NCBI GenBank assembly: GCA_964464475.1 | Contig: CAYXGG010000003.1 | Coordinates: 48,823 to 112,822, forward strand | Length of the DNA: 64,000 bases | Direction: 5' to 3' | Source: an uncultured Planctomycetales bacterium | GTDB taxonomy: Bacteria; Omnitrophota; Gorgyraeia; Zapsychrales; JAHFFX01 | In this document: piece by piece, positions 3,171-48,014 of the stretch | Position numbering within the stretch: position 1 is the first letter of the stretch | Layout: each line of letters begins with the position of its first letter | Position numbers and translations under genes: made by a program | Notes under the pieces: generated by a model | Told to the model about the DNA's origin: nothing | The model's input: only the letters and a program-made list of their open reading frames with translations | Database searches by the model: none

Positions 3171-3530
3171 ATGAGCGCCACCCACACCCATGACGTACAA
3201 AAAGAAGTCAAAATCTACTTAACGGTATTCGTCGCTTTGGGAATATTGACCGTTATTACCGTGGCGATTAGTAAATTACATTTTGGTTTAGTCGGGAATA
3301 TCACCGTGGCGTTGATTATTGCCACTATAAAAGCATCACTGGTTGCTTGCTATTTCATGCATCTGATTTCTGAAAAACAATTAATTTATGCTATTTTAGG
3401 AATGACGGGGTTTTTCTTTATATGCATGATTGTGTTGTTTATCGCCGGATTACATGACCCTATTATGGGGACGGAAATGATTAAAGGAGCAGGGCATGTC
3501 GCTCAAACAATTCCACATTCTGTTCATTAA
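3171..3530 (+). CDS. ctaF: Cytochrome c oxidase subunit IV (bacterial CtaF/CoxD type).
   Basis: 119 aa protein with three predicted TM helices, in the position normally occupied by ctaF, with a GAGGAA ribosome-binding site. Confidence 0.6.
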   Translation: MSATHTHDVQKEVKIYLTVFVALGILTVITVAISKLHFGLVGNITVALIIATIKASLVACYFMHLISEKQLIYAILGMTGFFFICMIVLFIAGLHDPIMGTEMIKGAGHVAQTIPHSVH

Positions 3531-3918
3531 TTTAGCGATACTTATGTTAGTTGGTTTCTTTGCCTGGACGCTTTCGCCGCAGGGCAAGACGCTTGGCAGT
3601 CAAACCGCTCTCTGGGGAGTGGTTTGCCTACTATTAGCTATAGGGCTAATTGTTTACGAAATTAGTTTCTTCAAGAAAACAAAAGGTCTCCTCATCGCAC
3701 TGGCCTTAATTGGTCAGCTTGTTGGAGTAAAATCCAGTCAAGCTTGCACGATGTGCTTTAGTCAAGGGGCTGGCAACAGTCAACTTATTGCAGTTAAGTT
3801 AGGAATTTTAAGTTTATTTCTGATTTTGATGGGAGTTCTAGCTACTTTGGTCTGGTTTTTTATAGGCATGGCGAAGAAAAGCAAATCGCTTAGTGTAAAT
3901 TCTGCAAATTTAACTTAA
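3496..3918 (+). CDS. Hypothetical polytopic membrane protein with a CxxC motif, embedded in the oxidase operon.
   Basis: 140 aa. An AAAGGAGCAGGG ribosome-binding site precedes the ATG. The start overlaps the ctaF 3' end by 35 nt. Contains QACTMCFSQG in a loop. No family recognised. Confidence 0.4.
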   Translation: MSLKQFHILFINLAILMLVGFFAWTLSPQGKTLGSQTALWGVVCLLLAIGLIVYEISFFKKTKGLLIALALIGQLVGVKSSQACTMCFSQGAGNSQLIAVKLGILSLFLILMGVLATLVWFFIGMAKKSKSLSVNSANLT

Positions 3919-3920
3919 TT

Positions 3921-4706
3921 ATGGAAAAAGGCTGGATACAAAAAATCATGGGGTTACCGCCCTTAGCTTCAGCGCAGGGTGGTGAAATTGACCTGATTAT
4001 TTTCCTCATGCATGTGTTGATGCTGGTTTTGTTGGTGGGCTGGGGAGTTTTCTTTATTTATGTTTTGTTCCGTTTCCGCGCGAAAAGAAATCCAAAAGCG
4101 AATTATACGGGAGTAACGAACCATTATTCGACCTACATTGAAGGTGCCGTGGCGCTTATCGAAGCCTTATTGTTAATCGGTTTCTCCATTCCTTTCTGGG
4201 CTAAAAATGTCAGTGCACTACCCACCGATAGAAATCCCATTGAAATCAGATTAGTGGCTGAGCAATTTGCCTGGGATTTTCATTATCCGGGTGCCGATGG
4301 AATTTTTGGAAAAACGGACATTAAATTTATCGACAAACAATCGAACCCGCTAGGATTAGACAAAGCAGATCCTGCATCTAAAGACGATATCGTTTCCATT
4401 AACCAATTATATCTACCTGTCAACCGTCAAGCCGTTATCCATGTTTCTAGTAAGGATGTTATTCATTCTTTTGCTCTTAATGTCATGCGGGTCAAACAGG
4501 ACGCCATTCCTGGCATGAGCATTCCCGTATGGTTTACGCCCACCCAAACCGGCCATTCTGAGATTGCCTGCGCTCAATTATGTGGATTAGGACATTACCG
4601 GATGAAGGGAGACCTCTACGTCGTTACTAATACAGAATACGACACGTGGTTGGCCTCTCAAGCCAAAACCTCGACTGGCTCCGGCGAAGAAGATTTTTGG
4701 AACTGA
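3921..4706 (+). CDS. ctaC: Cytochrome c oxidase subunit II (CuA subunit, no fused cytochrome c domain).
   Basis: Two N-terminal TM helices, then the CuA site HSFALNVMRVKQD...H...EIACAQLCGLGHYRMKG. Confidence 0.9.
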   Translation: MEKGWIQKIMGLPPLASAQGGEIDLIIFLMHVLMLVLLVGWGVFFIYVLFRFRAKRNPKANYTGVTNHYSTYIEGAVALIEALLLIGFSIPFWAKNVSALPTDRNPIEIRLVAEQFAWDFHYPGADGIFGKTDIKFIDKQSNPLGLDKADPASKDDIVSINQLYLPVNRQAVIHVSSKDVIHSFALNVMRVKQDAIPGMSIPVWFTPTQTGHSEIACAQLCGLGHYRMKGDLYVVTNTEYDTWLASQAKTSTGSGEEDFWN

Positions 4707-4717
4707 TTGGATAAATC

Positions 4718-5719
4718 ATGAGCAGCACTCCTGTCACAAATCCTGAAGCGCCTTCAGGGCTGAGACGATTTTCAAAAATTGTCTCTCTGACAACCTTAGC
4801 TTTAATTTTTGTCGGTGGCATGGTAACTAGCACCTCTTCGGGGCTGTCCGTTCCTGACTGGCCGCTTTCCTATGGAATGCTTTTCCCTCCTATGGTGGGA
4901 GGTGTTTTTTATGAACACGGGCACCGAATGGTTGCCGCCCTCGTAGGGTTCTTGACATTAATTCAGGCATTCTGGTTATGGCGAAGCCCCGTCGCTCCAT
5001 GGATAAAAAAGCTAGGTTGGGTTGCCTTAGGTGTGGTTATCTTGCAAGGTCTTTTGGGAGGATTAACGGTCTTAATGTTTTTGCCGCCACCAGTCTCGAT
5101 TTCTCACGGTGTCTTGGCCCAGACATTTTTCTTAATTACGATTGTCATTGCTTATGCTCTTTCGGTTGAGCGGCAAAATAAAATTAACGGAAAAACATTT
5201 TATCTGGAAAAAAATTTACTTAAATCAGCTTTATTACTTACCGCCGCAGTTTATATTCAACTCATCCTAGGGGCTTTGATGCGTCATACTCAATCGGGGC
5301 TCGCTATTCCTGATTTCCCAACAATGGGGGGAAAGATCATTGCTTCGTTTGATCAAAGCATGCTAAATTCGATCAATGATTGGCGCTTCGAGTATAATTA
5401 TCCACCGGTAGTTATGAAGCAAATAGTTATTCATTTTTTGCACCGGGCTTGGGCGATAGTCATTTTACTACTCGTTTTGTCTTTAGCTTGGAAACTTGTC
5501 CGGATGCCAACACTTTTTCCAAATATCAAAGCTTCGATTATCTATGTAAATAGTATTATCTGGATCCAAATAATCTTAGGAATTTTAACGGTATTAAATC
5601 ATAAATCGCCAGTACTTACGAGTCTACACGTCGTGACCGGGGCGACGACCTTAGGGTTATGCATGTTACTCTTACTTCGAGCTGCGCCTTTATCCTGGAA
5701 AGATTTCTTAAAATCATGA
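4718..5719 (+). CDS. ctaA: Haem A synthase (COX15/CtaA).
   Basis: 333 aa polytopic protein. The N-terminal region RFSKIVSLTTLALIFVGGMVTSTSSGLSVPDWPLSYG and the conserved His residues are typical of CtaA. Confidence 0.85.
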   Translation: MSSTPVTNPEAPSGLRRFSKIVSLTTLALIFVGGMVTSTSSGLSVPDWPLSYGMLFPPMVGGVFYEHGHRMVAALVGFLTLIQAFWLWRSPVAPWIKKLGWVALGVVILQGLLGGLTVLMFLPPPVSISHGVLAQTFFLITIVIAYALSVERQNKINGKTFYLEKNLLKSALLLTAAVYIQLILGALMRHTQSGLAIPDFPTMGGKIIASFDQSMLNSINDWRFEYNYPPVVMKQIVIHFLHRAWAIVILLLVLSLAWKLVRMPTLFPNIKASIIYVNSIIWIQIILGILTVLNHKSPVLTSLHVVTGATTLGLCMLLLLRAAPLSWKDFLKS

Positions 5720-6588
5720 ATCAACAAAATAAAGAATTGTTTAACGGTTATCTGGAACTTTCCAAACCCAGTATTACCACACTTATTTTAATCACAATGG
5801 GACTAGGATACTTTCTGGGCGGGAAGGGGATAGCAGACTGGATCAATTTCTGTTTTAGTCTTTCTGGTGCCGCGTTAGTTTGCGCCGGAGCATCAGCCCT
5901 CAATCATTACTTAGAGCGTGATGCTGATTGCAAAATGGCGCGTACAAAAAATCGGCCAATTCCCTCAGGACTAATTGCCGCTCACAACGCACTATCTTTT
6001 GGCATCATCACAATTTTAACCGGAATAACTCTCTTAGCCGTTAAGGTCAATTTGCTTACCGCTTTTTTAAGCCTTTTGACTGCTTTTCTATACGTTATTG
6101 TTTACACTCCTATGAAAAAACGTAGCTGGCTTAATACTTCTATTGGAGCAATTCCCGGAGCTATTCCACCAATGGGAGGCTGGGCAGCCGCTACAGGACA
6201 GTTGGACTGGGGAGCGTGGATCCTTTTTGGGATTCTGTTTTTGTGGCAACATCCCCATTTCTTCGCTATTGCCTGGATGTTTAAAGAGGACTATGGTAAA
6301 GCCGGATTTAAAATGCTGCCGGTCATTGATCCTGGCGGACAAAAAACATTTGAACAAATCGAAATTTTTTCGCTGTTGTTAATACCCGTTTCCCTTATGC
6401 CAACTTTAATTGGTTTGTCTGGGGGGCTGTACTTCTGGGGAGCATTGCTTCTAGGAATTAGCTTTTGGTGGGCGGGTAAAGCGTTGGCTCAAACTCATTC
6501 CTTTGCTGATGCACGCAAATTGCTTAAAGCCTCTGTTATTTATTTACCCTTACTATTTATTTTAATTATTGCTGATTTTTCCTTTTAA
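5716..6588 (+). CDS. ctaB: Protohaem IX farnesyltransferase (haem O synthase).
   Basis: UbiA-family motifs are present (DADCKMARTKNRPIPSG). The in-frame ATG forms an ATGA overlap with the ctaA stop. The track ORF begins earlier, at 5659. Confidence 0.88.
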   Translation: MNQQNKELFNGYLELSKPSITTLILITMGLGYFLGGKGIADWINFCFSLSGAALVCAGASALNHYLERDADCKMARTKNRPIPSGLIAAHNALSFGIITILTGITLLAVKVNLLTAFLSLLTAFLYVIVYTPMKKRSWLNTSIGAIPGAIPPMGGWAAATGQLDWGAWILFGILFLWQHPHFFAIAWMFKEDYGKAGFKMLPVIDPGGQKTFEQIEIFSLLLIPVSLMPTLIGLSGGLYFWGALLLGISFWWAGKALAQTHSFADARKLLKASVIYLPLLFILIIADFSF

Positions 6589-8266: not shown

Positions 8267-8758
8267 TCAGATTTTAGGCTGGGGACGAGAAACACCAGAC
8301 ATATCTAACACAATGTCCGTACTGTCTTTAAATGCCTTATGTTGTATAACTAACATATAAAAGAAATGCGCTAAAGTCGCCCAAAACAGCCAGCCGTGAA
8401 TTGATTTGGCGATCCGATTGGTATCTACAGCACCTCCCAAAATAAACAATATACTCACTAAAAAAATGTTGAGTAATATCGGGGGATATATCTTCATTTT
8501 GACTTGAAAGGAACGTTTAAGAAATTCTTTAGGTAAACCTTGTTCATTAACGTAGTCTCTGATACTTACGCCAATGCCAACAAAATAAAACATGACCAGC
8601 GTTTCCGTAAACAAATAAATAATAGACGTCAATAACGCAAACGTCGCGTGATTAGCATTAAAGATTGAGAATCCCCAATAACCTTGAGCTGCTGTCAGAG
8701 ACAGCAATACCAGTGTTATCCCGGTCAAAACATAGCAGGAAATCATAAAAAACCACAT
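8267..8758 (-). CDS. His-rich membrane protein with four TM helices (possible cytochrome b-like membrane anchor).
   Basis: The internal Met (MWFFMISCYVL...) of track ORF 8267..9049 was chosen because the longer N-terminus overlaps the convincing ferredoxin gene in another frame. His residues sit inside predicted TM helices (NANHATF; IHGWLFWATLAHFFYMLVIQH). Confidence 0.5.
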   Translation of the reverse strand: MWFFMISCYVLTGITLVLLSLTAAQGYWGFSIFNANHATFALLTSIIYLFTETLVMFYFVGIGVSIRDYVNEQGLPKEFLKRSFQVKMKIYPPILLNIFLVSILFILGGAVDTNRIAKSIHGWLFWATLAHFFYMLVIQHKAFKDSTDIVLDMSGVSRPQPKI

Positions 8759-8771
8759 GGGCGAGAGGAAA

Positions 8772-9131
8772 TTAAGCTGAAATGCTTTTGGTTGAAGGGA
8801 TGAACGCTTCGCTAATTTGAATGTTGAATTTTTTCTCGATTTCTTCTGTGGGTACCATTCGAATGGCGTCCCATGTAAGTTTATTACAAACACGAGAGCA
8901 AATTTGGCAACCGATACACTCGTTATAACGAATTTCAACGGGTGGTATCGTCGTTCCGTGATCCTGGGTGTGCGGCTGAATACAATCAACCGGGCAAAAC
9001 GGAACACAGACTTGACAGCCGGTGCAATTATCGACGTCAACCAGGGCAATAAGCTTAGGCCGTTTCTTCTTCGCTGAAATCTTATCCGGAAGTTCAGGAA
9101 TTGTTTTATAAAAAGAAGAAGGAACGGCCAT
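8772..9131 (-). CDS. Ferredoxin with two [4Fe-4S] motifs.
   Basis: CTGCQVCVPFCPVDC and CIGCQICSRVC motifs. 119 aa, with a basic N-terminal extension. Confidence 0.8.
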   Translation of the reverse strand: MAVPSSFYKTIPELPDKISAKKKRPKLIALVDVDNCTGCQVCVPFCPVDCIQPHTQDHGTTIPPVEIRYNECIGCQICSRVCNKLTWDAIRMVPTEEIEKKFNIQISEAFIPSTKSISA

Positions 9132-9571: not shown

Positions 9572-11077
9572 CTACAAGGAAACCGTGTCGTGTTGAGTAA
9601 TCTTACTAACGGCTTTTTCAGTGACCCCCAGATTCTTATTGGCGCGACTAGAGATTTTCTGTAAGAAATACTCAGCAAACGCTTTAAAGCCATGCAACTT
9701 ACGTAACAAATCGCCTACTGAATTGATCGAAATCAACATGCGCCACATTTGGCGGGGACGTAAATAAAATTCCTTTAATCCGGTGTCAATCAACTGATCA
9801 ATCTGTCGACTGGATAACTGCGGGTAATTAAGCAAGGTTCGTTGTTCTTTTTGGGCGGTTAGCCATTCATCCCATTTTTTGGTGACCAAATAGTCATTTT
9901 CTTTTGCCCATTTGTATAAAGTGGTTCCTGGATAAGCGGCCACACCCGTAATCTGAATAGTATCCAGTGGTAGTGACTTAGCAAAATCAATGGTCTGTCG
10001 AGCGCTCTCCTGAGTTTCGCCGGGGGCTCCGATCATAAAACAACCATGAATCGTAAAACCCAAATTATGGGCGCGATTAGCGTAGCGAGAGGCCATTTCA
10101 GTGCTGACGCCACCTTTACGAATAACCCGTAACTGTTCGTCAGTCCCAAATTCAAAACCCGTCATGAGCATGCGACACCCCGCTTTACGCATTAAGGGGA
10201 GAAGTTCTAAATCCGTATTGACCCGCATATTACACGACCAAGTAATTTTTTTGTTGATACCCCGACGCATGATTTCTTCACAGACTTCAGTTACATGCTT
10301 CTTATCAGCGGCAAAGGTATCTGTTTCAAACATAATTTCGCGAATTTGGGGATGAGTCTTTAAGTCATACTCCATCTCATCAACCACTAATTGCGCATCT
10401 CGATTACGCAAGCGGTAGCCATACATCAGTTGCGGATCTCGACAAAAAGTACAGGCGTTATTGCAGCCTCTTCCCGTGATAAGTGTCAAAAACGGGAATT
10501 TTTTACCGCCATCAGGATACCACTCGGGTTGGATTAATTGCCAGGCTGGAAAGGGGAGCTCATTGACGTCAATCGTGGGGCGATCTAGATTATTAACCAC
10601 CTGCGTGCCATCCCACCAGGACATTCCCAGAACATCCGCCGGTTTTACGTTATTAGCTAAATCTCTTAAAGCGTAATCATATTCGCGTCTTAAGACATAA
10701 TCAACAACGCCTCGGCCAATTTTGAAAGTGTCCTCAACTTCCGCCGTCACGTGTTGCCCTACAAACGCCACTTGGCAATGAGTCCTGTCTTTGATGATTT
10801 TGGCTTGGTTGATATCCGCAAAAATGGATGGGGTCGTTGCGTGAATAACTAGTAAATCGGGATGAGCATTAACTGTAAGGTTGATGGAATCTTCGGGAGG
10901 CAAGTTTCGAGCGGCCGCTTCAATAAACTCAACTTTATGGCCCGCGTTAAGAAGGACTTGCGCGGCAATCAATAAGAATTCTGGGTGCCTTTGAACACGT
11001 CCACGTGATTTAGCTGACCACCGAGCGACCCTGACAAAATCATCCCCATAACTGGGGTTGAGAATAACTACCTTCAT
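9572..11077 (-). CDS. B12-binding-domain radical SAM enzyme (class B radical SAM). Substrate unknown.
   Basis: N-terminal cobalamin-binding-like domain plus a radical SAM core with GRGCNNACTFC (CxxxCxxC). 501 aa. GAAAGG ribosome-binding site. Confidence 0.8.
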   Translation of the reverse strand: MKVVILNPSYGDDFVRVARWSAKSRGRVQRHPEFLLIAAQVLLNAGHKVEFIEAAARNLPPEDSINLTVNAHPDLLVIHATTPSIFADINQAKIIKDRTHCQVAFVGQHVTAEVEDTFKIGRGVVDYVLRREYDYALRDLANNVKPADVLGMSWWDGTQVVNNLDRPTIDVNELPFPAWQLIQPEWYPDGGKKFPFLTLITGRGCNNACTFCRDPQLMYGYRLRNRDAQLVVDEMEYDLKTHPQIREIMFETDTFAADKKHVTEVCEEIMRRGINKKITWSCNMRVNTDLELLPLMRKAGCRMLMTGFEFGTDEQLRVIRKGGVSTEMASRYANRAHNLGFTIHGCFMIGAPGETQESARQTIDFAKSLPLDTIQITGVAAYPGTTLYKWAKENDYLVTKKWDEWLTAQKEQRTLLNYPQLSSRQIDQLIDTGLKEFYLRPRQMWRMLISINSVGDLLRKLHGFKAFAEYFLQKISSRANKNLGVTEKAVSKITQHDTVSL

Positions 11078-11082
11078 AAGTA

Positions 11083-11214
11083 CCTTTCTACTGGCCTATT
11101 TACTACCAAAGACAGAAGTAAGCCAGTACCTGATGAAGTCAGGCCTTTCTTCTGTTCGGGGAAAGGCCGTATTCACCTCAATATTCTTGTCTTTCGTAGT
11201 AGAAAGGTCAATAA
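11083..11214. repeat. Copy A of a ~120-130 nt structured element. It contains a conserved hairpin (TACTGGCC...N28...AAGCCAGTA) and a 3' box GTAGTAGAAAGGTCAATAA, flanked by a near-perfect 10-11 bp inverted repeat (CCTTTCTACT/AGTAGAAAGG).
   Basis: Direct sequence comparison with a second copy at about 43200-43321. Lies between the radical SAM start and the acnA promoter. Confidence 0.6.
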
Positions 11215-11342
11215 GCCGTTGGCTCTTAAAAAATTATCTACTAAAATAGTATCCTAAAAAATGCCGTTTGCAAGACCAAAGTCGGTTTTTATCCAAACCC
11301 CGTTGTTAACCTAAGTCTTCTGTTATCAAATAGATAAATAAT

Positions 11343-11371
11343 TTGACGAACTTAGGGGCATTCACTATAAT
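11343..11371 (+). promoter_or_regulatory. Sigma70-like promoter for acnA (TTGACG-N17-TATAAT).
   Basis: Consensus hexamers with 17-nt spacing, about 80 nt upstream of the acnA ATG. Confidence 0.5.
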
Positions 11372-29639: not shown

Positions 29640-31472
29640 TTAAGAAATAACTGCCGCCGGATCCATCGCAAACATCTGACGATTTGCATCAATCAATTCT
29701 TCCAATTTCTTCTTGTAAGAAGCCAACTCTAAAATCATTCTTTCACGATACTCTAATGATTCTTCAAGCATTTTTGGAATAATGAGCCTGTAGTACTCAA
29801 TTCCCTCTAATAAATTCTTTTTGAATTCAACAAAATATTCAACCTGCTTTTGCGTAGGCTCTAAGACTTTGGAGACTTCTTTCTGCAAATACTCAATGTA
29901 AAGATTTAACTCTTTAATAAATAAATTCGGTCTATAAGTCTCATTAAGCAAATTGCAACGACCATAAATATGATCCACCATTTCCTTAAGGGTGGCAATT
30001 TTAGAAAAATAAGCAATATTGGGGCCAGGGCATACAGCGCCGAACCGTTTAACCCATTCCTTGCCAATTTTCTTAATGACCATAACCCCTTCACCCAGAT
30101 CATTACAAATGCAGGCTTTATTGACAACTGAATCAAAAATACGTTTAAAATGACGCGGCTCAAGATTAAGTGCCGACACCTGATCCAATTTCAATTTCTG
30201 ATATTGCCGTGATGCCGTACAGATGGGCAGTTTTGTAAATTCTGTATTAGAAACCAAATATCCTTTCGGACAGGGGCTTCCCGGACGACCAGCGAGGACA
30301 CGTCTTTCTTTTTCTAACTCGCTACTGGATTTTCGTAGCGTGTGGAAGGGGACCCCTAAAGGAGAGATATCACTTAAATAGACATCTTGCTCCCCCGCAC
30401 TTGCTAATTTCTGCAACGTATCCTCTTCGACATTGGTCACTTCAGGCACCAACAAAAACGGCGTTCCCCAGCCAGTGCTGTCTAATTGAAAGAATTCACG
30501 CAAAAATTTATCTTCTTTAGCAGTTCCAATTCCACCCTGGGCTGTGATTTTCATTTGCGGGGTCACCAAAAAGGGGGCCAGTGACTTCGCCTTTAACGCC
30601 TCGTTACAAATACCCTGCAGCATAACTTGCAATTCATCACGTCTATTTTTGAACTCCTCCATGATAGGACCAAACAAAAACCCATCTGAAGCGAAAGCGT
30701 GCCCACCACAGTTTAAACCCGACTCAATTCTAAATTCTGAAACCCAAATACCTTTTTTAGCTAAAAATTTTCCCTGTGTTAAAGCCGAACGAAAATCACT
30801 TACTTTTAAGGTAATTTTTTTCTTGATGTACCCAGCGACATCGGCGTAGAAATCTTTAAATTCTTCAATATAACCATACAAACGACGATTAAAACCGGCG
30901 GAAAAAATGATAGAGGCGGCAAGTTCACTTTTAGCAAATCCGCGTAACGCAGCCAACGCATCGGAATACTCAGCAGGCAACTCATTTCCATCCTTATCAA
31001 AATTAGGGCGATCTAGCTTCGTCATAATATTGACATTGATATCCCCCTTACGTAAGGACTGACGAATAGCCATCTGCAATTCTTCTTTAGCCAAAGGATC
31101 TTTTGATCGCGACATGATCAAATAGAGATTCTTTAAGGGAGAATTATCAGGGAGTAATTCGCAATATTTGGTAATTTCACTACCCGGCTCAAAAGGAGAC
31201 TTTTTAAGCTCTTCAAATTGACGTTGAACAATCCGATTCAATAAATTTAAATATTCCGTAATGCGGCGAGCGCGGAAATCATGCTCCTCTTTTGTAATAG
31301 GAACATAGGTTTCACCGCTTTGTTCACAGTAATGTCGACGCATGTCCTCTATCAAAACATCATCAACTAACGAAATAACCGAGGAGATGCCGTAACGGGC
31401 TACTTTAACGGGAGTATCGATCGAAAAACCCGTCCCCATGACGGGGATATGAAAGGAGTGAATGGGTTTCAT
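29640..31472 (-). CDS. Large uncharacterised flavoprotein-like enzyme with an NMO/FabK-type FMN TIM-barrel core, a roughly 190-aa insertion and a Cys-rich C-terminal domain.
   Basis: N-terminal HIPVMGTGFSIDTPVKVARYGISSV and later ITAQGGIGTAKEDKFLREFFQLDSTGWGTPFLLVPE resemble the FMN/phosphate-binding motifs of nitronate monooxygenase/FabK. The C-terminal 250 aa carry CPKG, C(I)C and CPGP Cys clusters. The track ORF starts at a TTG (31508), so the ATG at 31472 was chosen. Confidence 0.4.
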   Translation of the reverse strand: MKPIHSFHIPVMGTGFSIDTPVKVARYGISSVISLVDDVLIEDMRRHYCEQSGETYVPITKEEHDFRARRITEYLNLLNRIVQRQFEELKKSPFEPGSEITKYCELLPDNSPLKNLYLIMSRSKDPLAKEELQMAIRQSLRKGDINVNIMTKLDRPNFDKDGNELPAEYSDALAALRGFAKSELAASIIFSAGFNRRLYGYIEEFKDFYADVAGYIKKKITLKVSDFRSALTQGKFLAKKGIWVSEFRIESGLNCGGHAFASDGFLFGPIMEEFKNRRDELQVMLQGICNEALKAKSLAPFLVTPQMKITAQGGIGTAKEDKFLREFFQLDSTGWGTPFLLVPEVTNVEEDTLQKLASAGEQDVYLSDISPLGVPFHTLRKSSSELEKERRVLAGRPGSPCPKGYLVSNTEFTKLPICTASRQYQKLKLDQVSALNLEPRHFKRIFDSVVNKACICNDLGEGVMVIKKIGKEWVKRFGAVCPGPNIAYFSKIATLKEMVDHIYGRCNLLNETYRPNLFIKELNLYIEYLQKEVSKVLEPTQKQVEYFVEFKKNLLEGIEYYRLIIPKMLEESLEYRERMILELASYKKKLEELIDANRQMFAMDPAAVIS

Positions 31473-31668
31473 AATTTTTGTTTGGCCGATACCGATAGGC
31501 ACACACAACTATAATCTAAAGTACTCAAAACGCAAGAAAAATATTCCTCTTTTTAATTTCTTAAATATACAATATTTCAGTAGTTTAGCATCAGTTAAAA
31601 CACTAACATTCCCATTGAAATAATACACTTTTGTACTAAAATACGACCAAAATTCAAGAAAGGTTTTT

Positions 31669-41427: not shown

Positions 41428-41757
41428 GTGGCTTATGATGAACGCTTAGAATCACGACTTATCCTGCTAGTCCAAAGACGGGACGATATCTTTGCCAGAA
41501 AAATGTTTGGTGGGGTAGGATTTTTACTAAGAGGTAACATGTGTTTTGGTATTTGGAAGGACTCATTGATATTACGCCTGGACATTAAGACCGCTGAAAA
41601 AGCCTTATTACAGCGAGGAGTGCGTCCTTTTGACATCACGGGACGTCCAATGAGAGGCTGGATATTGGTTGAGCCATCGGCGATGAAAACCACCGCCTCT
41701 CTTAAAAAGTGGGTCAACCTAAGCTTACGCTACGTTGCCAAGTTGCCCCGCAAGTAG
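41428..41757 (+). CDS. TfoX N-terminal domain protein.
   Basis: KMFGGVGFLLRGNMCFGI...LILRLD is the TfoX_N signature. GTG start. 109 aa. Confidence 0.6.
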   Translation: MAYDERLESRLILLVQRRDDIFARKMFGGVGFLLRGNMCFGIWKDSLILRLDIKTAEKALLQRGVRPFDITGRPMRGWILVEPSAMKTTASLKKWVNLSLRYVAKLPRK

Positions 41758-41804
41758 GACTAAACATACTTCCTCAATTTTATGGAAGAGAAAGAACAGG
41801 GATC

Positions 41805-43016
41805 ATGGAAACATCAACACTAAGTTTTACCGGTCTGGGAATTGCCCCCCGGATTATGGACACGCTAAATAGTTTAAAGTTCAAACACCCTACGCCCATT
41901 CAACATCAAGCCATTCCGGTGATTTTGGAAGGAAAAGATTTCATGGGCATCGCCCAAACAGGTACCGGCAAAACTTTAGCCTTTACGATTCCCACCATTC
42001 AACAAATGGCCCAAACCAAAGATAAAGCGGTCGTGGTTGTCCCAACACGAGAGCTGGCCGTACAGGTCAACGAAACGTTTACCAAAATTGCCCGTCCCTT
42101 TAATATTCGAACTGCGGTTCTCATCGGTGGAGAACCTCTGCATAAACAATTTAAAGCCCTGGCCGCGCATCCGCGCGTTATTATTGCCACGCCTGGCCGT
42201 CTAATCGATATCATGAAACAACGAAGAATATCTTTGGCTGATGCCAAAATTCTTATTTTGGACGAAGCAGATCGAATGTTTGATATGGGTTTCGCTCCTC
42301 AAATCGAAGAAATTCTTAGGTCTATTCCTAAAGATCGACAGACGCTATTATTTTCAGCAACGATGCCCTCGGAAATACTGTCCGTGGTCAGAAGACATTT
42401 GCGTATGCCGGTCACGATTGAAATCGCACCACCCGGAACCAAATCCGAAGCAGTCACTCATGAGCTTTTCATTGTCCGTCAGGAAATGAAAAAAACTCTC
42501 TTAGAGAAACTATTAACCCGCTTTAGGGGCTCCGTCTTGCTATTCTGTCGTACCAAAATTGCCGCTCACCGTATCGCCAAAACAATGATCGCGCGCGGTT
42601 ATAACGCGGCGGAAATCCATTCTGATCGATCGCTAGGCCAGCGTCGAGAAGCGCTGGAAGGCTTCAAGAACGGCAAATATCGCATTCTCATTGCCACGGA
42701 TATCGCCTCCCGAGGGATTGATGTCAAAGGCATAGAACTCGTCGTCAATTATGATCTTCCGGATGATCCGGAAAATTATGTTCATCGTATCGGAAGAACC
42801 GGACGCGCCGGGCAACAAGGACACGCCATTAGCTTTGCGACGGCCGATCAAAGGGAAGAGGTCAATAAAATTGAACGATTACTAAAAGCGACTTTGCCGA
42901 TTTCAAAGCATCCGGAAATTCCTACCGATGATTTTGCTCCGCCACGTCCGGTCTATACTCATAAGCAACGATCTGGTTCCTGGAGCAATCGCCGCTCCTT
43001 CGGTCGCCGAAGATAA
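41805..43016 (+). CDS. DEAD-box ATP-dependent RNA helicase (RhlE-like).
   Basis: Q-motif, AQTGTGKT, DEAD, SAT and HRIGRTGR motifs, with an Arg-rich C-terminal tail. ATG preceded by GGAAGAGAAAGA. Confidence 0.88.
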   Translation: METSTLSFTGLGIAPRIMDTLNSLKFKHPTPIQHQAIPVILEGKDFMGIAQTGTGKTLAFTIPTIQQMAQTKDKAVVVVPTRELAVQVNETFTKIARPFNIRTAVLIGGEPLHKQFKALAAHPRVIIATPGRLIDIMKQRRISLADAKILILDEADRMFDMGFAPQIEEILRSIPKDRQTLLFSATMPSEILSVVRRHLRMPVTIEIAPPGTKSEAVTHELFIVRQEMKKTLLEKLLTRFRGSVLLFCRTKIAAHRIAKTMIARGYNAAEIHSDRSLGQRREALEGFKNGKYRILIATDIASRGIDVKGIELVVNYDLPDDPENYVHRIGRTGRAGQQGHAISFATADQREEVNKIERLLKATLPISKHPEIPTDDFAPPRPVYTHKQRSGSWSNRRSFGRRR

Positions 43017-43199
43017 AAGCCCTTTCGATAACTTCCCTAACACCATCCTTAGGGAAGTTATCGTACAAAATTCTTCCTACTGAATCAATCTCACAAGAAT
43101 AGCCTCGCTAGCTGATTGAGTTCCTTTCAAATAAATTCCTACAATTGATTTATTCTTTTGCCCGTATAAATCCACCATAAAACTTTATTCAGGAAATCG

Positions 43200-43321
43200 G
43201 CAATACTGGCCTTTTCTCTTCCAATGCTAGTTAAGGAAGCCAGTATTAACCCTTTCTTCTCTTTGAGAAAAGGCGGTATTGACTACATTAAATACAGCAT
43301 TAGTAGTAGAAAGGTCAATAA
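43200..43321. repeat. Copy B of the structured element (TACTGGCC hairpin plus GTAGTAGAAAGGTCAATAA box), immediately upstream of menA.
   Basis: Aligned by eye with copy A. The hairpin stems are conserved and the loops differ. Confidence 0.6.
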
Positions 43322-43368
43322 AAGAGCTAGTCATTGAATTAACACTGAATTTTGTTAAAATTCAATTC

Positions 43369-44238
43369 ATGAATCCTTGGCTCTTGGCCATTCGCCCCAG
43401 AACCTTACCTGCCGCAATAGCTCCGGTACTGATTGGAACGGCCATGGCGCTACGCGACGGCATTTTGCATATTCCTTCGGCTCTCCTGGCTTGCTTAGGT
43501 GCTTTGTTTATCCAAATCGGAACCAATCTCGCAAATGATTATTATGATTTTATTAAAGGAACGGATAAAAACAGAATAGGCCCAACTCGGGTGACTCAGG
43601 CCGGATTGATTGCCCCTCAAACAGTCAAAAAAGCATTTTGGCTTTTTTTTGGACTAGCGGCCGTATGTGCCTGTTTATTGCTAGGGAGGGGGGGATGGCC
43701 GATTGCCGTCATTGGTATTTTTTCGATCATTTCTGGGTTACTTTATACCGCTGGACCTTACCCACTTGGGTACTTAGGGCTAGGAGAAATTTTTGTTTTA
43801 ATTTTCTTTGGTCCCGTGGCTGTGGCGGGAACATATTACGTACAAACTCTAGACATGACCCTCCCGGTTCTGTTAGCAGGCTTAGCCTCAGGCTTAATTT
43901 CTGCGGCTATTTTGGCCGTTAATAACCTACGCGATAAGGAAGGTGATGCCCGTTCCCATAAGCGCACGTTAGCTGTACGTTTTGGCCTTAAATTCGCACG
44001 TTTAGAATTTGCCTTATGCCTGATAGGTGCCGCACTAATCCCCGTGATCCTGGTCAGCCTAACCCAGGATTTCTTTTATTCGTTAGCAGGATGTTTAATT
44101 ATTGTTCCATCAATTCCAGTGATCAAGGTAGTTAATTCCAGAACCGATGGCCCAGCGCTCAATAAAGCGTTAGCCGATACCGGAAAAATTCTTTTTATTT
44201 ACAGTATCTTATTTTCCCTCGGATGGATCTTATCCTGA
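43369..44238 (+). CDS. menA: 1,4-dihydroxy-2-naphthoate polyprenyltransferase.
   Basis: UbiA-family (NDYYDFIKGTDK...). The internal ATG was chosen because the track ORF N-terminus runs over the repeat element. A TTGAAT-N16-TAAAAT promoter-like sequence ends about 8 nt before the ATG, so the mRNA may be leaderless. Confidence 0.8.
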   Translation: MNPWLLAIRPRTLPAAIAPVLIGTAMALRDGILHIPSALLACLGALFIQIGTNLANDYYDFIKGTDKNRIGPTRVTQAGLIAPQTVKKAFWLFFGLAAVCACLLLGRGGWPIAVIGIFSIISGLLYTAGPYPLGYLGLGEIFVLIFFGPVAVAGTYYVQTLDMTLPVLLAGLASGLISAAILAVNNLRDKEGDARSHKRTLAVRFGLKFARLEFALCLIGAALIPVILVSLTQDFFYSLAGCLIIVPSIPVIKVVNSRTDGPALNKALADTGKILFIYSILFSLGWILS

Positions 44239-45344
44239 TAAAATCTTATCGTCTTTTTTCTTACGTGTTACCGTTTAAGAAACCGGTACGCATTAAAGGG
44301 CACGCGCTAACTAAGCGACAGGGATTATTAGTTCAATTATCTGATGGAAAATCGGTGGGCTGGGGCGAGGCAGCGCCACTGCCTCATTTTAGTCACGAAA
44401 CAACCGCACAGGCATTTAAACAACTACAGAAAATTCTGCCACGACTGATCACCACAACACAACAGCAGGGTTCGATAACAGCAGCCCAAGACTATTTAGA
44501 ATCAAAAAAGAATTATCCCTCGGTTGAATTTGCCTTGGAGTGCGCGCTACAGAATCTTTCCGACAACACTAAGCGACCTAGACAGAAAACCCCTAACTCA
44601 AACCACACGACTGTACTCGCCGTTCCCTTAAGCGGACTACTCCAGGGAAACTCTCGAGAAATTATTAACGAGGCTCATCGATTACAAAATTTGGGGGTAA
44701 CCTCATTTAAACTCAAGCTTAGCAATAACCACCAGCAAGACATTCAGCTATTACACAAACTTGACCGTTCTCTAAAACCAGGTATTGGGCTACGACTAGA
44801 TGCCAATCAACGCCTTAATTTTTCCGAGGCGGTAACGCTCATTTCGCGCTCTCCTCGCCACCGCATCGATTACATTGAAGAACCTTTCAGAAATTTGCAA
44901 ATAGCTGAAAAACTCTTTCAAGCAACTCAAACTCCTTACGCACTAGATGAAAGTTTAAGTAAAATTAGTTATAATGTTTTACCTAAACTAAAAGGGTTAA
45001 AAGCGCTTATTCTAAAACCCACCCTGCTGGGTGGATCAAAAAATTTGCGCCATTGGGTGACCTGGGGCAATAAATTAAAATTGCAAATAATTTTTAGCGC
45101 TTGTTTTGAAAGTTCTCTGGGCTTAAACCGAATCATCGGGTATATTCTTAAACTGCTCAAGCAGCCAGTGCCCCAGGGGTTAGACACTTATAAATATTTT
45201 AAGCACGAGCTGACCAGTTATCCGTTAACCATCAAGAATGGAAATTTGATCAGCGCTCCAACAATTAATCATATTGAAGTAATAACGCCGAACTTCATAA
45301 AGGATGTGACGTATGAACCCAATTATTCCTTGCCCGCTTGCTGA
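44223..45344 (+). CDS. menC: o-succinylbenzoate synthase (enolase superfamily).
   Basis: Enolase-superfamily MR/MLE-type barrel (KLKL...DANQ...DE). Overlaps menA by 16 nt. Confidence 0.7.
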   Translation: MDLILIKSYRLFSYVLPFKKPVRIKGHALTKRQGLLVQLSDGKSVGWGEAAPLPHFSHETTAQAFKQLQKILPRLITTTQQQGSITAAQDYLESKKNYPSVEFALECALQNLSDNTKRPRQKTPNSNHTTVLAVPLSGLLQGNSREIINEAHRLQNLGVTSFKLKLSNNHQQDIQLLHKLDRSLKPGIGLRLDANQRLNFSEAVTLISRSPRHRIDYIEEPFRNLQIAEKLFQATQTPYALDESLSKISYNVLPKLKGLKALILKPTLLGGSKNLRHWVTWGNKLKLQIIFSACFESSLGLNRIIGYILKLLKQPVPQGLDTYKYFKHELTSYPLTIKNGNLISAPTINHIEVITPNFIKDVTYEPNYSLPAC

Positions 45345-46779
45345 GGCAGCCAAAAAATTCAGCACACAACCAGCCCTGATCTACGGTCCTCGAGCCATCT
45401 CTTTTCGACAATTAGATCTCTGCGTGTCCTCAACCGCTAAGCAATTAAAAAAACTGGGCGTCCACAAAGGTCAACGCGTGGCACTCGCGGACGAGAGGAC
45501 GCTAGAATCCATCGTCATCTTATGGGCTCTGTGGAGAATTGGCGTGGTCGTTGGGTTACTGTCCAATAAACTCCCTGAAGACGCCTTTAACACTCAACTA
45601 AAGAAAATTAACGCTCAACTCTTGTTTACCTCAGAGAAAGCCTACATGGTTTCCCGTCGAATCCTACAACGCAAATTTAGACCTGATGAAGTCATTAGTT
45701 TTGATGTCAAAGAACCATCCAGTGGTAATCCAGAAAAAATGGATCTCTCTCAACCTGCCACCATTATTTTTACTTCAGGAAGCTCATCCGAGCCGAAAGC
45801 AGCATTACATACTTTGGGGAACCATGTGTACAGCGCTCTAGGAGCCAATATGAACATCTCCATCGAGAAGGGAGATAAATGGCTATTATCGTTACCGCTA
45901 TACCACGTCAGTGGTGTCAGTATCTTGTTTCGTTGTTTGCTGGGGGGGGGCACCATTATTATTCCTCGGGAAGATGAGGACATTCTACCCGCGATCCGCC
46001 GCAATAAAATCACCCATGTTTCATTAGTAACGACCCAATTATTTAGACTCATGAATAATGGCCCCTCGCAAACCGAATTATCTTCCATCAAATGTGTTCT
46101 GCTGGGAGGAGGCCCGATTCCTCCATCGTTGCTTAAAGATGCCGCGGAATTCGAATTACCCGTATATCCGACCTACGGTTTAACTGAAATGGCTTCTCAA
46201 GTTGCCACTGCAAATACGCCATTAAAAAATGCCGATGATAAACTGGAACTCAAAGTCTTGAAATATCGAGATCTTAAAATCTCTGGGCAAGGAGAGATTC
46301 TGGTCAAGGGAGAAACACTGTTTAAAGGTTATGTTGAAGCAGAGCGTATTAAATTACCTTTGAATAGCGAGGGTTGGTTTGAGACCGGGGACCTCGGGGA
46401 AATGGATCAAAACGGAAATTTGAAAATATGGGGACGAAAAGACAACATGTTTATATCCGGTGGAGAAAACATCCAACCGGAAGAAATTGAAAAATTACTT
46501 AACCAAAAAGAGGAAATTCTGGAGGCCCGGGTCATTCCGGTCAAAAATACAGAATTTGGCTTTCGTCCAGCTGCTTTTATTAAAATCCGTGAAACTGACA
46601 AGGAATTAACGACGGAATCGCTGCGTTCCTATTTAGGACAGCAGCTTCCTAAATTTAAAATTCCTGTAGCATTTTACCCCTGGCCCACCGAATTGGAGCG
46701 TGAAAATCTAAAAATTAGCCGCAAGGTGTTAAGCGAGCTACTAACCAATCCCCAGCGTCCTATTTCACCCATTTCTTAA
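45313..46779 (+). CDS. menE: o-succinylbenzoate--CoA ligase.
   Basis: AMP-binding motifs (TSGSSSEPK; YGLTE; GWFETGDLG). Contains a G9 homopolymer at about 45935-45943. Confidence 0.8.
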   Translation: MNPIIPCPLAEAAKKFSTQPALIYGPRAISFRQLDLCVSSTAKQLKKLGVHKGQRVALADERTLESIVILWALWRIGVVVGLLSNKLPEDAFNTQLKKINAQLLFTSEKAYMVSRRILQRKFRPDEVISFDVKEPSSGNPEKMDLSQPATIIFTSGSSSEPKAALHTLGNHVYSALGANMNISIEKGDKWLLSLPLYHVSGVSILFRCLLGGGTIIIPREDEDILPAIRRNKITHVSLVTTQLFRLMNNGPSQTELSSIKCVLLGGGPIPPSLLKDAAEFELPVYPTYGLTEMASQVATANTPLKNADDKLELKVLKYRDLKISGQGEILVKGETLFKGYVEAERIKLPLNSEGWFETGDLGEMDQNGNLKIWGRKDNMFISGGENIQPEEIEKLLNQKEEILEARVIPVKNTEFGFRPAAFIKIRETDKELTTESLRSYLGQQLPKFKIPVAFYPWPTELERENLKISRKVLSELLTNPQRPISPIS

Positions 46780-47164
46780 GCGACAACCGCATTTTAGGTG
46801 GTAAGGGGATTTTCTTATTAGTTTCTTGGCTAATGGTTACGTGAACGGTTTTTGCTGTACCAACCAGTACTTCCTTTACGTTAAAAATTTGATAACTAAA
46901 GGTAAAAGACGTCGTCCCAATGTGAGCAACCCTGATGGTAATAATAAGCCGATCACCAACAAAAAGTGGCTTTTTATAAGTTGCCTCGGCATGAACAATC
47001 GGTAAGAAAAAACTGGTTTTTCGGAGCATATGAGAAAAACTGAAACCCATTTTTTCCAACAGGGCTTCATACGCGTCATGAATGATGGAAAATTGATGGC
47101 TAAAAAAAAGCCTACCGGCAGCGTCGGTTTCATGCAATTTCACGGTGTGTGCATAGGTAAACAT
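46760..47164 (-). CDS. Hotdog-fold acyl-CoA thioesterase (4HBT/YbgC-like), a candidate DHNA-CoA thioesterase.
   Basis: 134 aa, 4HBT-like (HETDAAGRLFFSHQF). Convergent with menE and overlapping its end. Confidence 0.65.
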   Translation of the reverse strand: MFTYAHTVKLHETDAAGRLFFSHQFSIIHDAYEALLEKMGFSFSHMLRKTSFFLPIVHAEATYKKPLFVGDRLIITIRVAHIGTTSFTFSYQIFNVKEVLVGTAKTVHVTISQETNKKIPLPPKMRLSLKKWVK

Positions 47165-47257
47165 ATGATCTCCTTTGTAATTTTCCTTTAGTTTAAACCC
47201 GTCGGAGAAAAATTCAAACTTTTCCTCTAATTATTAAATTAAGAAGCGTTTTACTTA

Positions 47258-47285
47258 TTGACAAATGAATCTAAAGGGTTAATAT
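47258..47285 (+). promoter_or_regulatory. Sigma70-like promoter for the aquaporin gene (TTGACA-N16-TAATAT).
   Basis: Consensus -35 hexamer, about 60 nt upstream of the ATG, with a strong CAGGAGGAG ribosome-binding site. Confidence 0.45.
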
Positions 47286-47345
47286 AAGGAACATTTTTTT
47301 AGCATTTTTCGTTATTCCAATCAACCATCAGAATCAGGAGGAGTT

Positions 47346-48014
47346 ATGAACCTAAAAGCTTTGGTTGCGGAATTTATCGGCACTTTTGCGTTAATTTTTA
47401 TTGGCGTTGGTGCTATTGCCGGCAATCATTTAGGTAATGGAGCAACTGGTCTAACGGGTATCGCTCTAGCGCATGGTTTAGCCATTGCCGTGATGGTGAC
47501 GGCGACCGCGGCGGTTAGCGGTGGGCATCTTAATCCTGCGGTAACAATTGGCTTACTTTCGGTTGGCAAAATTGAAATTGGTAATGCCTTAGGCTATATT
47601 TTGGCCCAATGCTTTGGGGCTATTAGTGCGGCGGCCTTAATCAAATTATGCGTTCCGGCTGACGCTCTGGCTGCCGTTGGCATGGGAACCCCGTCTTTAG
47701 GCGCCCATATTTCAGTCACAATGGGGTTAATTACAGAAATCATTTTAACCTTTTTCTTAGCGTTTGTTGTTTTGGGATCCGCGGTTGATCAACGCGCTCC
47801 CAAAATGGGGGGACTTTTTATTGGGTTAACCGTCGCTTTAGATATCTTGATGGGAGGACCGATTTCTGGAGCTGCCATGAACCCGGCTCGCCATCTGGGA
47901 CCAGCATTGCTCGGAGGCGGACTGGACAATATCTGGCTATATTGGGTTGGACCTATTGTGGGTGCGGTATTGGCCGCTCAAATTTATAAAAACATTTTAG
48001 AACAGAAAACTTAA
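47346..48014 (+). CDS. aqpZ: MIP-family channel (aquaporin Z / glycerol facilitator-like).
   Basis: Two NPA boxes (GGHLNPAVT; AAMNPAR). 222 aa. Confidence 0.85.
   Translation: MNLKALVAEFIGTFALIFIGVGAIAGNHLGNGATGLTGIALAHGLAIAVMVTATAAVSGGHLNPAVTIGLLSVGKIEIGNALGYILAQCFGAISAAALIKLCVPADALAAVGMGTPSLGAHISVTMGLITEIILTFFLAFVVLGSAVDQRAPKMGGLFIGLTVALDILMGGPISGAAMNPARHLGPALLGGGLDNIWLYWVGPIVGAVLAAQIYKNILEQKT

Follow-up and report, generated by a model that had tools for sequence, protein, structure and literature searches.

Paired repeats upstream of acnA and menA as probable relics of a palindromic mobile element in Omnitrophota-type bacteria

Why does the same structured element, roughly 120 nt long, stand upstream of both acnA and menA in an uncultured bacterium? 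The question arises from a stretch of 64,000 nt (contig CAYXGG010000003.1, positions 48,823 to 112,822, assembly GCA_964464475.1), hereafter the window, which comes from an organism labelled Planctomycetales and placed in the Omnitrophota by GTDB. An original prediction, made from the letters of the window alone, offered two answers: a structured RNA, either a small RNA (sRNA) or a cis-regulatory leader, or a family of mobile repeats. Here, we report copies of the element in other genomes, and we consider it likely that both stretches are relics of a non-autonomous palindromic mobile repeat, a bacterial miniature inverted-repeat transposable element (MITE) that behaves like the Rickettsia palindromic element (RPE) and is carried by Omnitrophota-type bacteria. 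We favour this reading because the copies are dispersed, end in terminal inverted repeats (TIRs), are flanked by TA, are missing from the corresponding sites of relatives, are nearly identical within one genome, and lie in frame in unrelated genes.

The two window copies are colinear. Copy A (11089–11213) and copy B (43204–43320) lie on the plus strand in the same orientation, 32 kb apart, and are about 70–75% identical by direct reading and alignment; the alignment finds nothing in common between their flanks. The landmarks listed in the original prediction are all present at both sites, above what chance would give. TACTGGCC marks the left end (11089–11096 in A, 43204–43211 in B), AAGCCAGTA follows about 30 nt past it (11120–11128 and 43237–43245), AAAGGC(C/G)GTATT(C/G)AC is present in both, and the right ends carry the exact common 19-mer GTAGTAGAAAGGTCAATAA (11196–11214 and 43303–43321). 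Across the window, the 19-mer with ≤3 mismatches has two matches against 0.01 expected, and the pattern TACTGGCC-N20-40-GCCAGTA has two against none expected. A profile hidden Markov model (HMM) built from all collected copies matches A with E=4.7e-27 and B with E=4.7e-28 (nhmmer), and finds no third copy in the window. Another assembly from this species (L015, ENA ERZ3430527) also contains copy B; it is 99.84% identical to window positions 41972–47628 over 5657 bp.

Beyond the window, we scanned one genome per species and then metagenome contigs for the exact 19-mer, so that all copy counts given here are lower bounds. Full-length copies with the same boundaries were found on three contigs of the Candidatus Omnitrophota metagenome-assembled genome (MAG) nzgw300 (L003, L004, L005) and on two contigs of MAG CAYJRN01, which is labelled Planctomycetales (L001, L006); the metagenome scan added three more (L007–L009). 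The similarity is thus not confined to the 19-mer, and the further copies that the original prediction proposed to look for do exist, in unrelated contexts and some of them inside coding sequences. One more copy, L014, has a variant 19-mer and was missed by the exact word, so scans of this kind undercount the family. Altogether, there are at least 12 DNA copies in at least four genomes or metagenomes, at unrelated loci. A match in Paenibacillus is due to chance, consisting of the 19-mer without the full element, and viral contigs scanned with two element words gave no match. The three nzgw300 copies are 92–97% identical to one another, compared with 70–88% between genomes; A and B, at about 70%, are each nearer to copies in other genomes (up to 76–79%) than to each other. 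This is a pattern of amplification inside a genome, followed by decay.

Multiple alignments give all copies the same boundaries, (T)TA-CTGGCCTTTTCT on the left and AGAAAGGTCAA-TA(A) on the right; in 11 of 11, the core is flanked by TA left and right. A typical copy measures 115–118 nt (range 110–127 nt) and has a G+C content of 34–41%, against 44% for the window. The ends form imperfect TIRs of about 22 bp, in which 15–18 of 22–24 aligned positions match in all 11 copies, and the family profile matches its own reverse strand with E down to about 4e-8. In copy A, as delimited by nhmmer and by alignment with 9–10 other copies, a 121-nt core (11091–11211) lies between TA at 11089–11090 and TA at 11212–11213; its left TIR, CTACTGGCCTATTTACTACCAA (11088–11109), is the reverse complement of the right end at 16 of 22 positions, and its right TIR, TTCGTAGTAGAAAGGTCAATAA (11193–11214), includes the conserved 19-mer. 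Copy B, delimited by nhmmer, has a 113-nt core (43206–43318) between TA at 43204–43205 and TA at 43319–43320. Its left TIR, ATACTGGCCTTTTCTCTTCCAA (43203–43224), is the reverse complement of the right end at 16 of 23 aligned positions, and its right TIR, TTAGTAGTAGAAAGGTCAATAA (43300–43321), is placed by the 19-mer and the comparison of the ends.

Three local hairpins make up the family pattern: TACTGGC/GCCAGTA, (A)CCTTTC/GAAAGG(C) and TATTGAC/GTCAATA. Folded in another way, these bases can form one long end-to-end hairpin. Hairpin 1 spans 11089–11128 in copy A (TACTGGC 11089–11095 with GCCAGTA 11122–11128) and 43204–43245 in copy B (43204–43210 with 43239–43245). The loop between these arms had been described as free; it can in fact be aligned between copies. 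The central hairpin 2 of the family lies at 11142–11168 in copy A (GGCCTTTC 11142–11149 with GAAAGGCC 11161–11168). The second hairpin that had been proposed for copy A, CCTGATGAAGTCAGG (11129–11143), is private to this copy, being made by a 10-nt insertion that appears as a gap in all other aligned copies. This insertion accounts for the 127-nt length of copy A, and a simple scan marks the small hairpin as terminator-like. Hairpin 3 spans 11170–11213 in copy A, where TATTCAC (11170–11176) pairs with GTCAATA (11207–11213) with one mismatch, C in place of the G of other copies, and 43277–43320 in copy B (TATTGAC 43277–43283 with GTCAATA 43314–43320). Every copy also has a Shine-Dalgarno-like (SD-like) AGAAAGG at its right end. 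A leader peptide or small open reading frame (ORF) 3′ of this GAAAGG was considered and rejected, as no start codon is kept between copies. One copy departs from the common size: L009 (437–656, minus strand), an expanded variant, reaches about 219 nt; it begins normally with TTACTGGCC and has its hairpin-1 and hairpin-2 modules duplicated, with duplicated stems (GCCCCAGCTT/AAGCTGGGGC versus CACTTGCT/AGCAAGTG) that differ in sequence and still pair.

The repeat encodes no protein of its own and, at <500 bp, is too short for a transposase gene. Its best-kept copies are nevertheless stop-free in three of six frames, against 0.3–0.6 in shuffled sequence (P≤0.01), and some copies lie inside protein genes. 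In L001 (5425–5539) and L007 (141–255), the element is inserted in purQ (Pfam GATase_5), and the ORF continues through its minus strand, giving the peptides ...LPGFRDAAFAGG-FIDLSTTKSKEVVNTAFSSREERSNTSLPSVFGREKAS-RQDATLTYNDSG... in L001 and ...LPG-LIDLSTTKQRKEEVNTAFLQEKKGHNTGLSVFGNKKAG-KGPTASADGFHQQATLTYNDSG... in L007. Both insertions fall in one loop, at points separated by about 10 codons, which indicates that they are independent. The stretch from ...LPG to N(D/H)S..F comprises 55 aa in L001, compared with 9 aa in the Salmonella PurL structure 6jt7. When the core and one TA are deleted in silico (111 nt in L001, 111 nt in L007, 114 nt in L014), the ORF is uninterrupted in each case, and L001 after removal (...AGGFRQDATLTYNDS) is colinear with native L007 (...ADGFHQQATLTYNDS). 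The core and one TA together have a length divisible by three, and a frame is open; for this reason, insertions in surface loops or at protein ends persist as peptides added in frame.

The element-encoded peptide has about 37 aa and reads IDLSTTK...NTAF...VFGKEKASK, with NTAF in its middle part. A peptide profile run against a word-indexed protein database returned two fragments only, of which P0001 is pfkB-like at its N-terminus. When 1.84 billion representatives were searched exhaustively with HMMER, 16 proteins came out at E≤0.001; we inspected 11 of these, among them the two query fragments, and found the peptide in every one. It lies inside the VTT domain of a VTT/DedA protein (P0125, residues 110–150), at the end of a cyclophilin domain (P0127, encoded at L014, residues 182–225) and in the N-terminal region of a DUF192 protein (P0130). 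There are several variants of the peptide among the matches, some with an extra insert in mid-peptide, and P0129, P0132 and P0134 are long variants that resemble L009. These cases raise a broader reading, namely that selfish DNA in protein genes, as known from RPEs, occurs outside Rickettsia: a stop-free palindrome in Omnitrophota and relatives would repeatedly colonise tolerant loops in conserved enzymes, with a translated peptide of about 37 aa that may be neutral or under domestication. On this broader claim we are evenly divided. Its clearest sign is the pair of independent insertions in one purQ loop.

In related genomes, both of the window's sites are empty. The spacer between the radical SAM gene and acnA measures 372 nt in the window, with the element, and 217 nt in L010 (GCA_023247705.1), 156 nt in L012 (nzgw300 itself) and 177 nt in L013 (an ENA metagenome contig, ERZ27247363), all three without it. 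No match to the family profile occurs anywhere in those 57 kb of L010, L012 and L013. Two more orthologous contigs have radical-SAM/acnA spacers of about 220 nt, as judged from gene calls only, and at the menA locus of nzgw300 type (L016) the spacer is 44 nt and has no element. Because the window copies are intergenic, about 70% identical and absent from the same sites of relatives, they are lineage-specific insertions, probably old and immobile. Two local differences are recorded here as well. Less the repeat, the window spacer is still about 30–90 nt longer than those of the three relatives (156–217 nt), and the additional stretch (11215–11342) cannot be aligned with them. Between menB and menA, the window has an ORF with a TfoX_N domain and a DEAD-box helicase gene (41428–43016), while L016 has at that position an MBOAT gene and a gene for a 425-aa protein without a Pfam match.

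The neighbourhoods of the intergenic copies elsewhere are no more uniform: the genes beside them are unrelated, and the orientation of the element relative to those genes varies. The L003 copy lies downstream of a gene for a tRNA-binding protein, 10 nt past its stop codon. The L004 copy (3470–3640 region) sits within the loop of a GC-rich terminator-like hairpin, with MscS-like and NlpC/P60 genes on either side; the arms of that hairpin are GCGCGGGGCGGGCC ... GGCCCGCCCCGCGC, followed by TTTTT. In L005, the element lies between genes for a HAD hydrolase and an H+-pyrophosphatase. In L006, it overlaps the end of a 4-alpha-glucanotransferase gene (ORF 4391–6016), whose stop codon (6010–6016; ...TGT GTT TAT TGA) comes from the right end of the repeat, and the insertion therefore replaced the original 3′ end of the gene. 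The L008 copy has a prepilin-like ORF on one side and an anthranilate-synthase-like gene on the other. The prepilin-like ORF, with its KRG|FLLAE motif, is open across the whole repeat (1180–1311), no canonical start codon remains, and under a model of excision at TA the upstream ATG is out of frame. The leader peptide thus appears, from the reading frames, to have been split from its start.

In the window itself, the surroundings are those of ordinary metabolism. We screened 50 ORFs against Pfam, namely all 48 non-overlapping ORFs of ≥150 aa and the ferredoxin and TfoX ORFs. Those with an assignment are all housekeeping genes (among them the cox operon, radical SAM, acnA-leuCD-ilvD-aroC, the men operon, ribonucleotide reductase), and two have no match at E≤1e-5 (29640–31508, minus strand, 622 aa; 8267–9049, minus strand, 260 aa). 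Copy A lies between acnA and a gene assigned by Pfam to the B12-binding radical SAM proteins, which runs on the minus strand and whose start codon (11077–11075) is 11 nt from the element. The protein matches one on an NCBI contig at 100%, and its closest homologues bear the names Omnitrophota or Omnitrophica, in line with an Omnitrophota-type source for the window. This gene has its own SD sequence, GAAAGGT (11089–11083), so that start and SD together occupy 11075–11089. According to the original prediction, copy A is bracketed by an inverted repeat whose left arm doubles as the ribosome-binding site (RBS) of the radical SAM gene. The inverted pair does exist, CCTTTCTACT (11084–11093) against AGTAGAAAGG (11198–11207), with an 11-nt match between the left flank and the right end, and its arm pairs with the SD-like AGAAAGG of the right end. 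However, ...CCTTTCC also stands beside the CAT of L012, an orthologue without the element. The RBS is therefore native, not supplied by the element, and the left arm is made up of this native site (ACCTTTC) and the first bases of the element.

Both copies do stand 5′ of promoter-like sites for plus-strand genes, as had been claimed. For acnA, TTGACG-17-TATAAT (11343–11371, plus strand; 11 of 12 matches) lies 129 nt downstream of copy A, and with so strong a site at that distance, copy A is not in the acnA leader. Instead, copy A must, by its position, fall in the putative promoter or 5′ untranslated region of the radical SAM gene, on the strand opposite to the one first considered; a weak promoter-like TTGACC-17-AAGAAT is present in its right end on the minus strand. 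Copy B begins 187 nt past the stop of the DEAD-box helicase gene (43016) and ends 48 nt before the menA ATG (43369), and the menA promoter-like site, TTGAAT-16-TAAAAT with a TG extension (43334–43361, plus strand), lies downstream of it. The public MenA call P0137 (319 aa) starts further upstream, at a TTG inside copy B, and thus includes 43279–43368. MenA orthologues have 289–294 aa, which fits the ATG at 43369, and the N-terminal extension of 30 residues is for this reason probably an annotation artefact that arose from the open frame of the repeat. If either copy affects regulation, the effect would be incidental to its insertion.

We also examined whether the fold of the element is conserved. 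Fold z-scores range from -2.0 to -5.2 across copies, with -5.2 for the plus strand of copy A and -3.6 and -3.8 for minus strands. Covariation was counted over ten properly aligned copies, with L009 left out as an expanded variant that misaligns at its left end; an earlier, stronger-looking count was discarded because it had included L009. In the model of three local hairpins, 90.2% of cells are paired and three double changes give a score of 0.080, compared with 0.048 in shuffles (0 of 500 reach it) and 0.079 in the best slid control, shifted by -3. In the model of one long TIR-paired hairpin, 81.4% of cells are paired and a single double change gives 0.060, compared with 0.054 in shuffles (99 of 500 reach it) and 0.073 in the control slid by -3; we reject this hairpin as a conserved structure, as its covariation does not rise above shuffles. 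Across the ten copies, hairpins 1, 2 and 3 are paired at 97%, 75% and 98.5%, and hairpin 1 of L001 contains a compensatory change from G-C to A-T. To judge from this pairing, the hairpins are clearly a conserved property of the family. The check on covariation that the original prediction had suggested gives a divided result, with three double changes above shuffles on one side and a slid control that scores as high on the other; the signal is thin, and it would be the same for hairpins of RNA or of DNA.

Could the element then be a structured RNA gene, or a cis-regulatory leader that acts on acnA, menA or the minus-strand radical SAM gene? Both of its strands fold better than shuffled sequence, hairpin 1 combines nearly full pairing with the compensatory change in L001, the three-hairpin score exceeds all shuffles, and on the minus strand copy A is placed directly 5′ of the radical SAM RBS, with a promoter-like site in its right end. 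These observations are outweighed by others. The whole window has no match in Rfam 15 at the gathering threshold, and at E≤10 both regions, on either strand, yield only weak and irrelevant matches (E 1–10); a scan for tRNA and tmRNA found none. The copies stand in both orientations by unrelated genes, after stop codons, in a terminator loop and within coding sequences. Since orthologous spacers at acnA/radical-SAM and menA lack the element, it is no conserved part of the control regions of these genes, and both acnA and menA have their promoter-like sites downstream of it. The covariation amounts to three single-sequence events nearly equalled by a slid control, and no terminator is conserved across copies. 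With no Rfam match, no constant gene association and weak covariation, the sRNA or leader proposed in the original prediction is very improbable, and its other alternative, a family of mobile repeats like MITEs or repetitive extragenic palindromes (REPs), is supported by dispersed copies, TIRs with TA ends and empty orthologous spacers. An explanation without transposition, through local duplication or gene conversion within the genome or through a shared array of regulator binding sites, can appeal to the same orientation of A and B at 32 kb and to a motif of about 14 nt, TAyTGrCCTTTyCT, that is repeated inside each window copy. It is already contradicted by the same element, with the same boundaries, at unrelated loci of other genomes, and is scarcely credible when the flanks of A and B share nothing and each copy is closer to foreign copies than to the other.

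How might a mobile repeat of this kind have moved? The defining traits of bacterial MITEs are a small size (<500 bp), TIRs (about 4–30 bp), a duplicated target and stable stem-loops (PMC10969869, PMC2229807), and the repeat is short, lacks a transposase gene, has TIRs and a stable stem-loop, and occurs as dispersed copies that differ in presence and absence. A transposase acting in trans would have placed its copies at TA dinucleotides, copy A landing immediately upstream of the radical SAM RBS and copy B between the helicase gene and the menA promoter. The mobiliser may have been an enzyme of the IS630/Tc1-mariner type, a choice we favour since elements of this type target TA, which they duplicate on insertion (PMC2170065), and since RUP, Correia and ERIC, bacterial MITEs with TA termini, look alike (PMC2229807). 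Several observations weigh against parts of this account. The TA flanks in 11 of 11 copies, and the ORFs restored on removal of the core and one TA, are equally expected if TA belongs to the termini of the element, and an alternative excision boundary, after TTAC on the left and after TCAA on the right, also keeps purQ in frame. Within the window there is neither an autonomous insertion sequence (IS) nor a second TIR pair with matching ends, and none of the 50 screened ORFs is a transposase. The number of copies per genome, two or three by exact word and hence a lower bound, is apparently low. Finally, the G-to-A change at the left end of L001 is matched in its local hairpin partner, not in the right terminal repeat, a pattern that agrees somewhat better with recognition of hairpins, or with RNA structure, than with TIRs recognised in the classical way.

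The last point leads to the main rival of the IS630-type step, in which the element would move as single-stranded DNA through a hairpin-recognising HUH (Y1) enzyme, derived from IS200/IS605 or akin to REPs and bacterial interspersed mosaic elements (BIMEs) with their RAYT, and not as a MITE of DDE type. The element is indeed built of three local hairpins, the left-end change of L001 follows its hairpin partner, and L009 repeats hairpin modules with different stems that still pair. At the left junction, 7 of 10 copies have TTAC, and on the right the core terminates in TCAA; these are the tetranucleotides cleaved in IS608. A GTAG motif, as it occurs in REPs, is invariant. IS200/IS605 elements have neither TIRs nor target duplications, and their hairpins are subterminal, set back from the cleavage sites. 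In contrast, the repeat has clear inverted-repeat ends with TA on both sides, its hairpins reach the very ends, and the putative cleavage sites lie inside hairpin stems, not at a distance; we therefore do not class it as IS200/IS605-derived. The base after TCAA is conserved (TAA), even in L014, which was found without the 19-mer, and this would be unexpected for flanking DNA. REPs are imperfect palindromes of about 35 nt (some 20–40 nt), extragenic and highly abundant, and the RAYT gene is flanked by them. The present unit, at about 115 nt, occurs in few copies and also in coding sequences, which sets it apart from the REP/BIME class, for which RAYT was not searched genome-wide; no Y1 transposase was seen among the Pfam-screened ORFs of the window. 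We rate the HUH mechanism below the IS630-type step, as unlikely. A bolder form of the reading in which the element colonises enzyme loops would have its movement rely on the local hairpins or on pairing with bases of the target. This would account for the 11 nt shared by the left flank and the right end of copy A, and is improbable at best.

Taking the element as a MITE-like repeat, we compared it with known systems, several of which share its most unusual habit, since in-frame fusions occur with RPEs, ERIC and the 107-bp Correia element (PMC10969869, PMC2229807). RPEs are palindromic repeats of 105–150 bp with TIRs that are found between genes or in frame in conserved genes (Ogata et al. 2000, via PMC2229807 and PMC10969869). 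As far as these later papers summarise them, the likeness extends to a palindrome of similar length, TIRs, both intergenic and in-frame copies in unrelated conserved genes, a peptide of about 35–50 aa, several open frames and a transposase that is unknown. By the same summaries, the differences lie in the host, which here is of Omnitrophota type, free-living or uncultured, and not Rickettsia; in the apparent copy number, which is lower here; and in the TA at both ends, present in all of our copies and in only some RPEs. The element may thus be said to behave like an RPE, a likeness drawn from behaviour and not from sequence, and we do not file it as one.

RUP of Streptococcus pneumoniae and Correia/NEMIS of Neisseria are likewise about 107–155 bp long, with TIRs and TA at both termini, and the 107-bp Correia form also has open frames and intragenic copies (PMC2229807). 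RUP differs in the documented similarity of its TIRs to those of IS630-Spn1, whereas no cognate IS was identified here; both RUP and Correia reach about 100 or more copies per genome, and their TIRs are seemingly unrelated to ours. ERIC/IRU (127 bp) resembles the element in its imperfect palindrome, near-equal length, TA termini and occasional in-frame fusions, and is transcribed within operons (PMC2229807). It differs in taxon and sequence, in its short 7-bp TIR, and in that effects on mRNA stability have been shown experimentally for ERIC. The Coxiella burnetii elements QMITE1 and QMITE2, as cited at second hand (PMC5896051, via PMC10969869), are MITEs with TIRs and stable hairpins, some copies of which lie within ORFs and some of which overlap sRNAs; as given there, they are longer (190–400 bp), have direct repeats of 7–9 bp, and are present in many tens in each genome.

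Text searches of PMC and bioRxiv turned up no account of a repeat of this kind in Omnitrophota. The family is apparently undescribed so far, in a poorly studied phylum, and the kind of element is already known. As decayed intergenic copies, A and B are ordinary; the in-frame behaviour of the family is more interesting. For the window, the analysis removes a false lead, since the common element is not a regulator that links acnA and menA, and it explains the probable mis-annotation of menA as a 319-aa protein that starts at a TTG in the element. More generally, such repeats can serve to mark genome dynamics in uncultured lineages. In the annotation of MAGs they also give rise to false novel domains and to genes that are called in pieces, and they provide natural experiments on which protein loops tolerate inserts of 37 residues.

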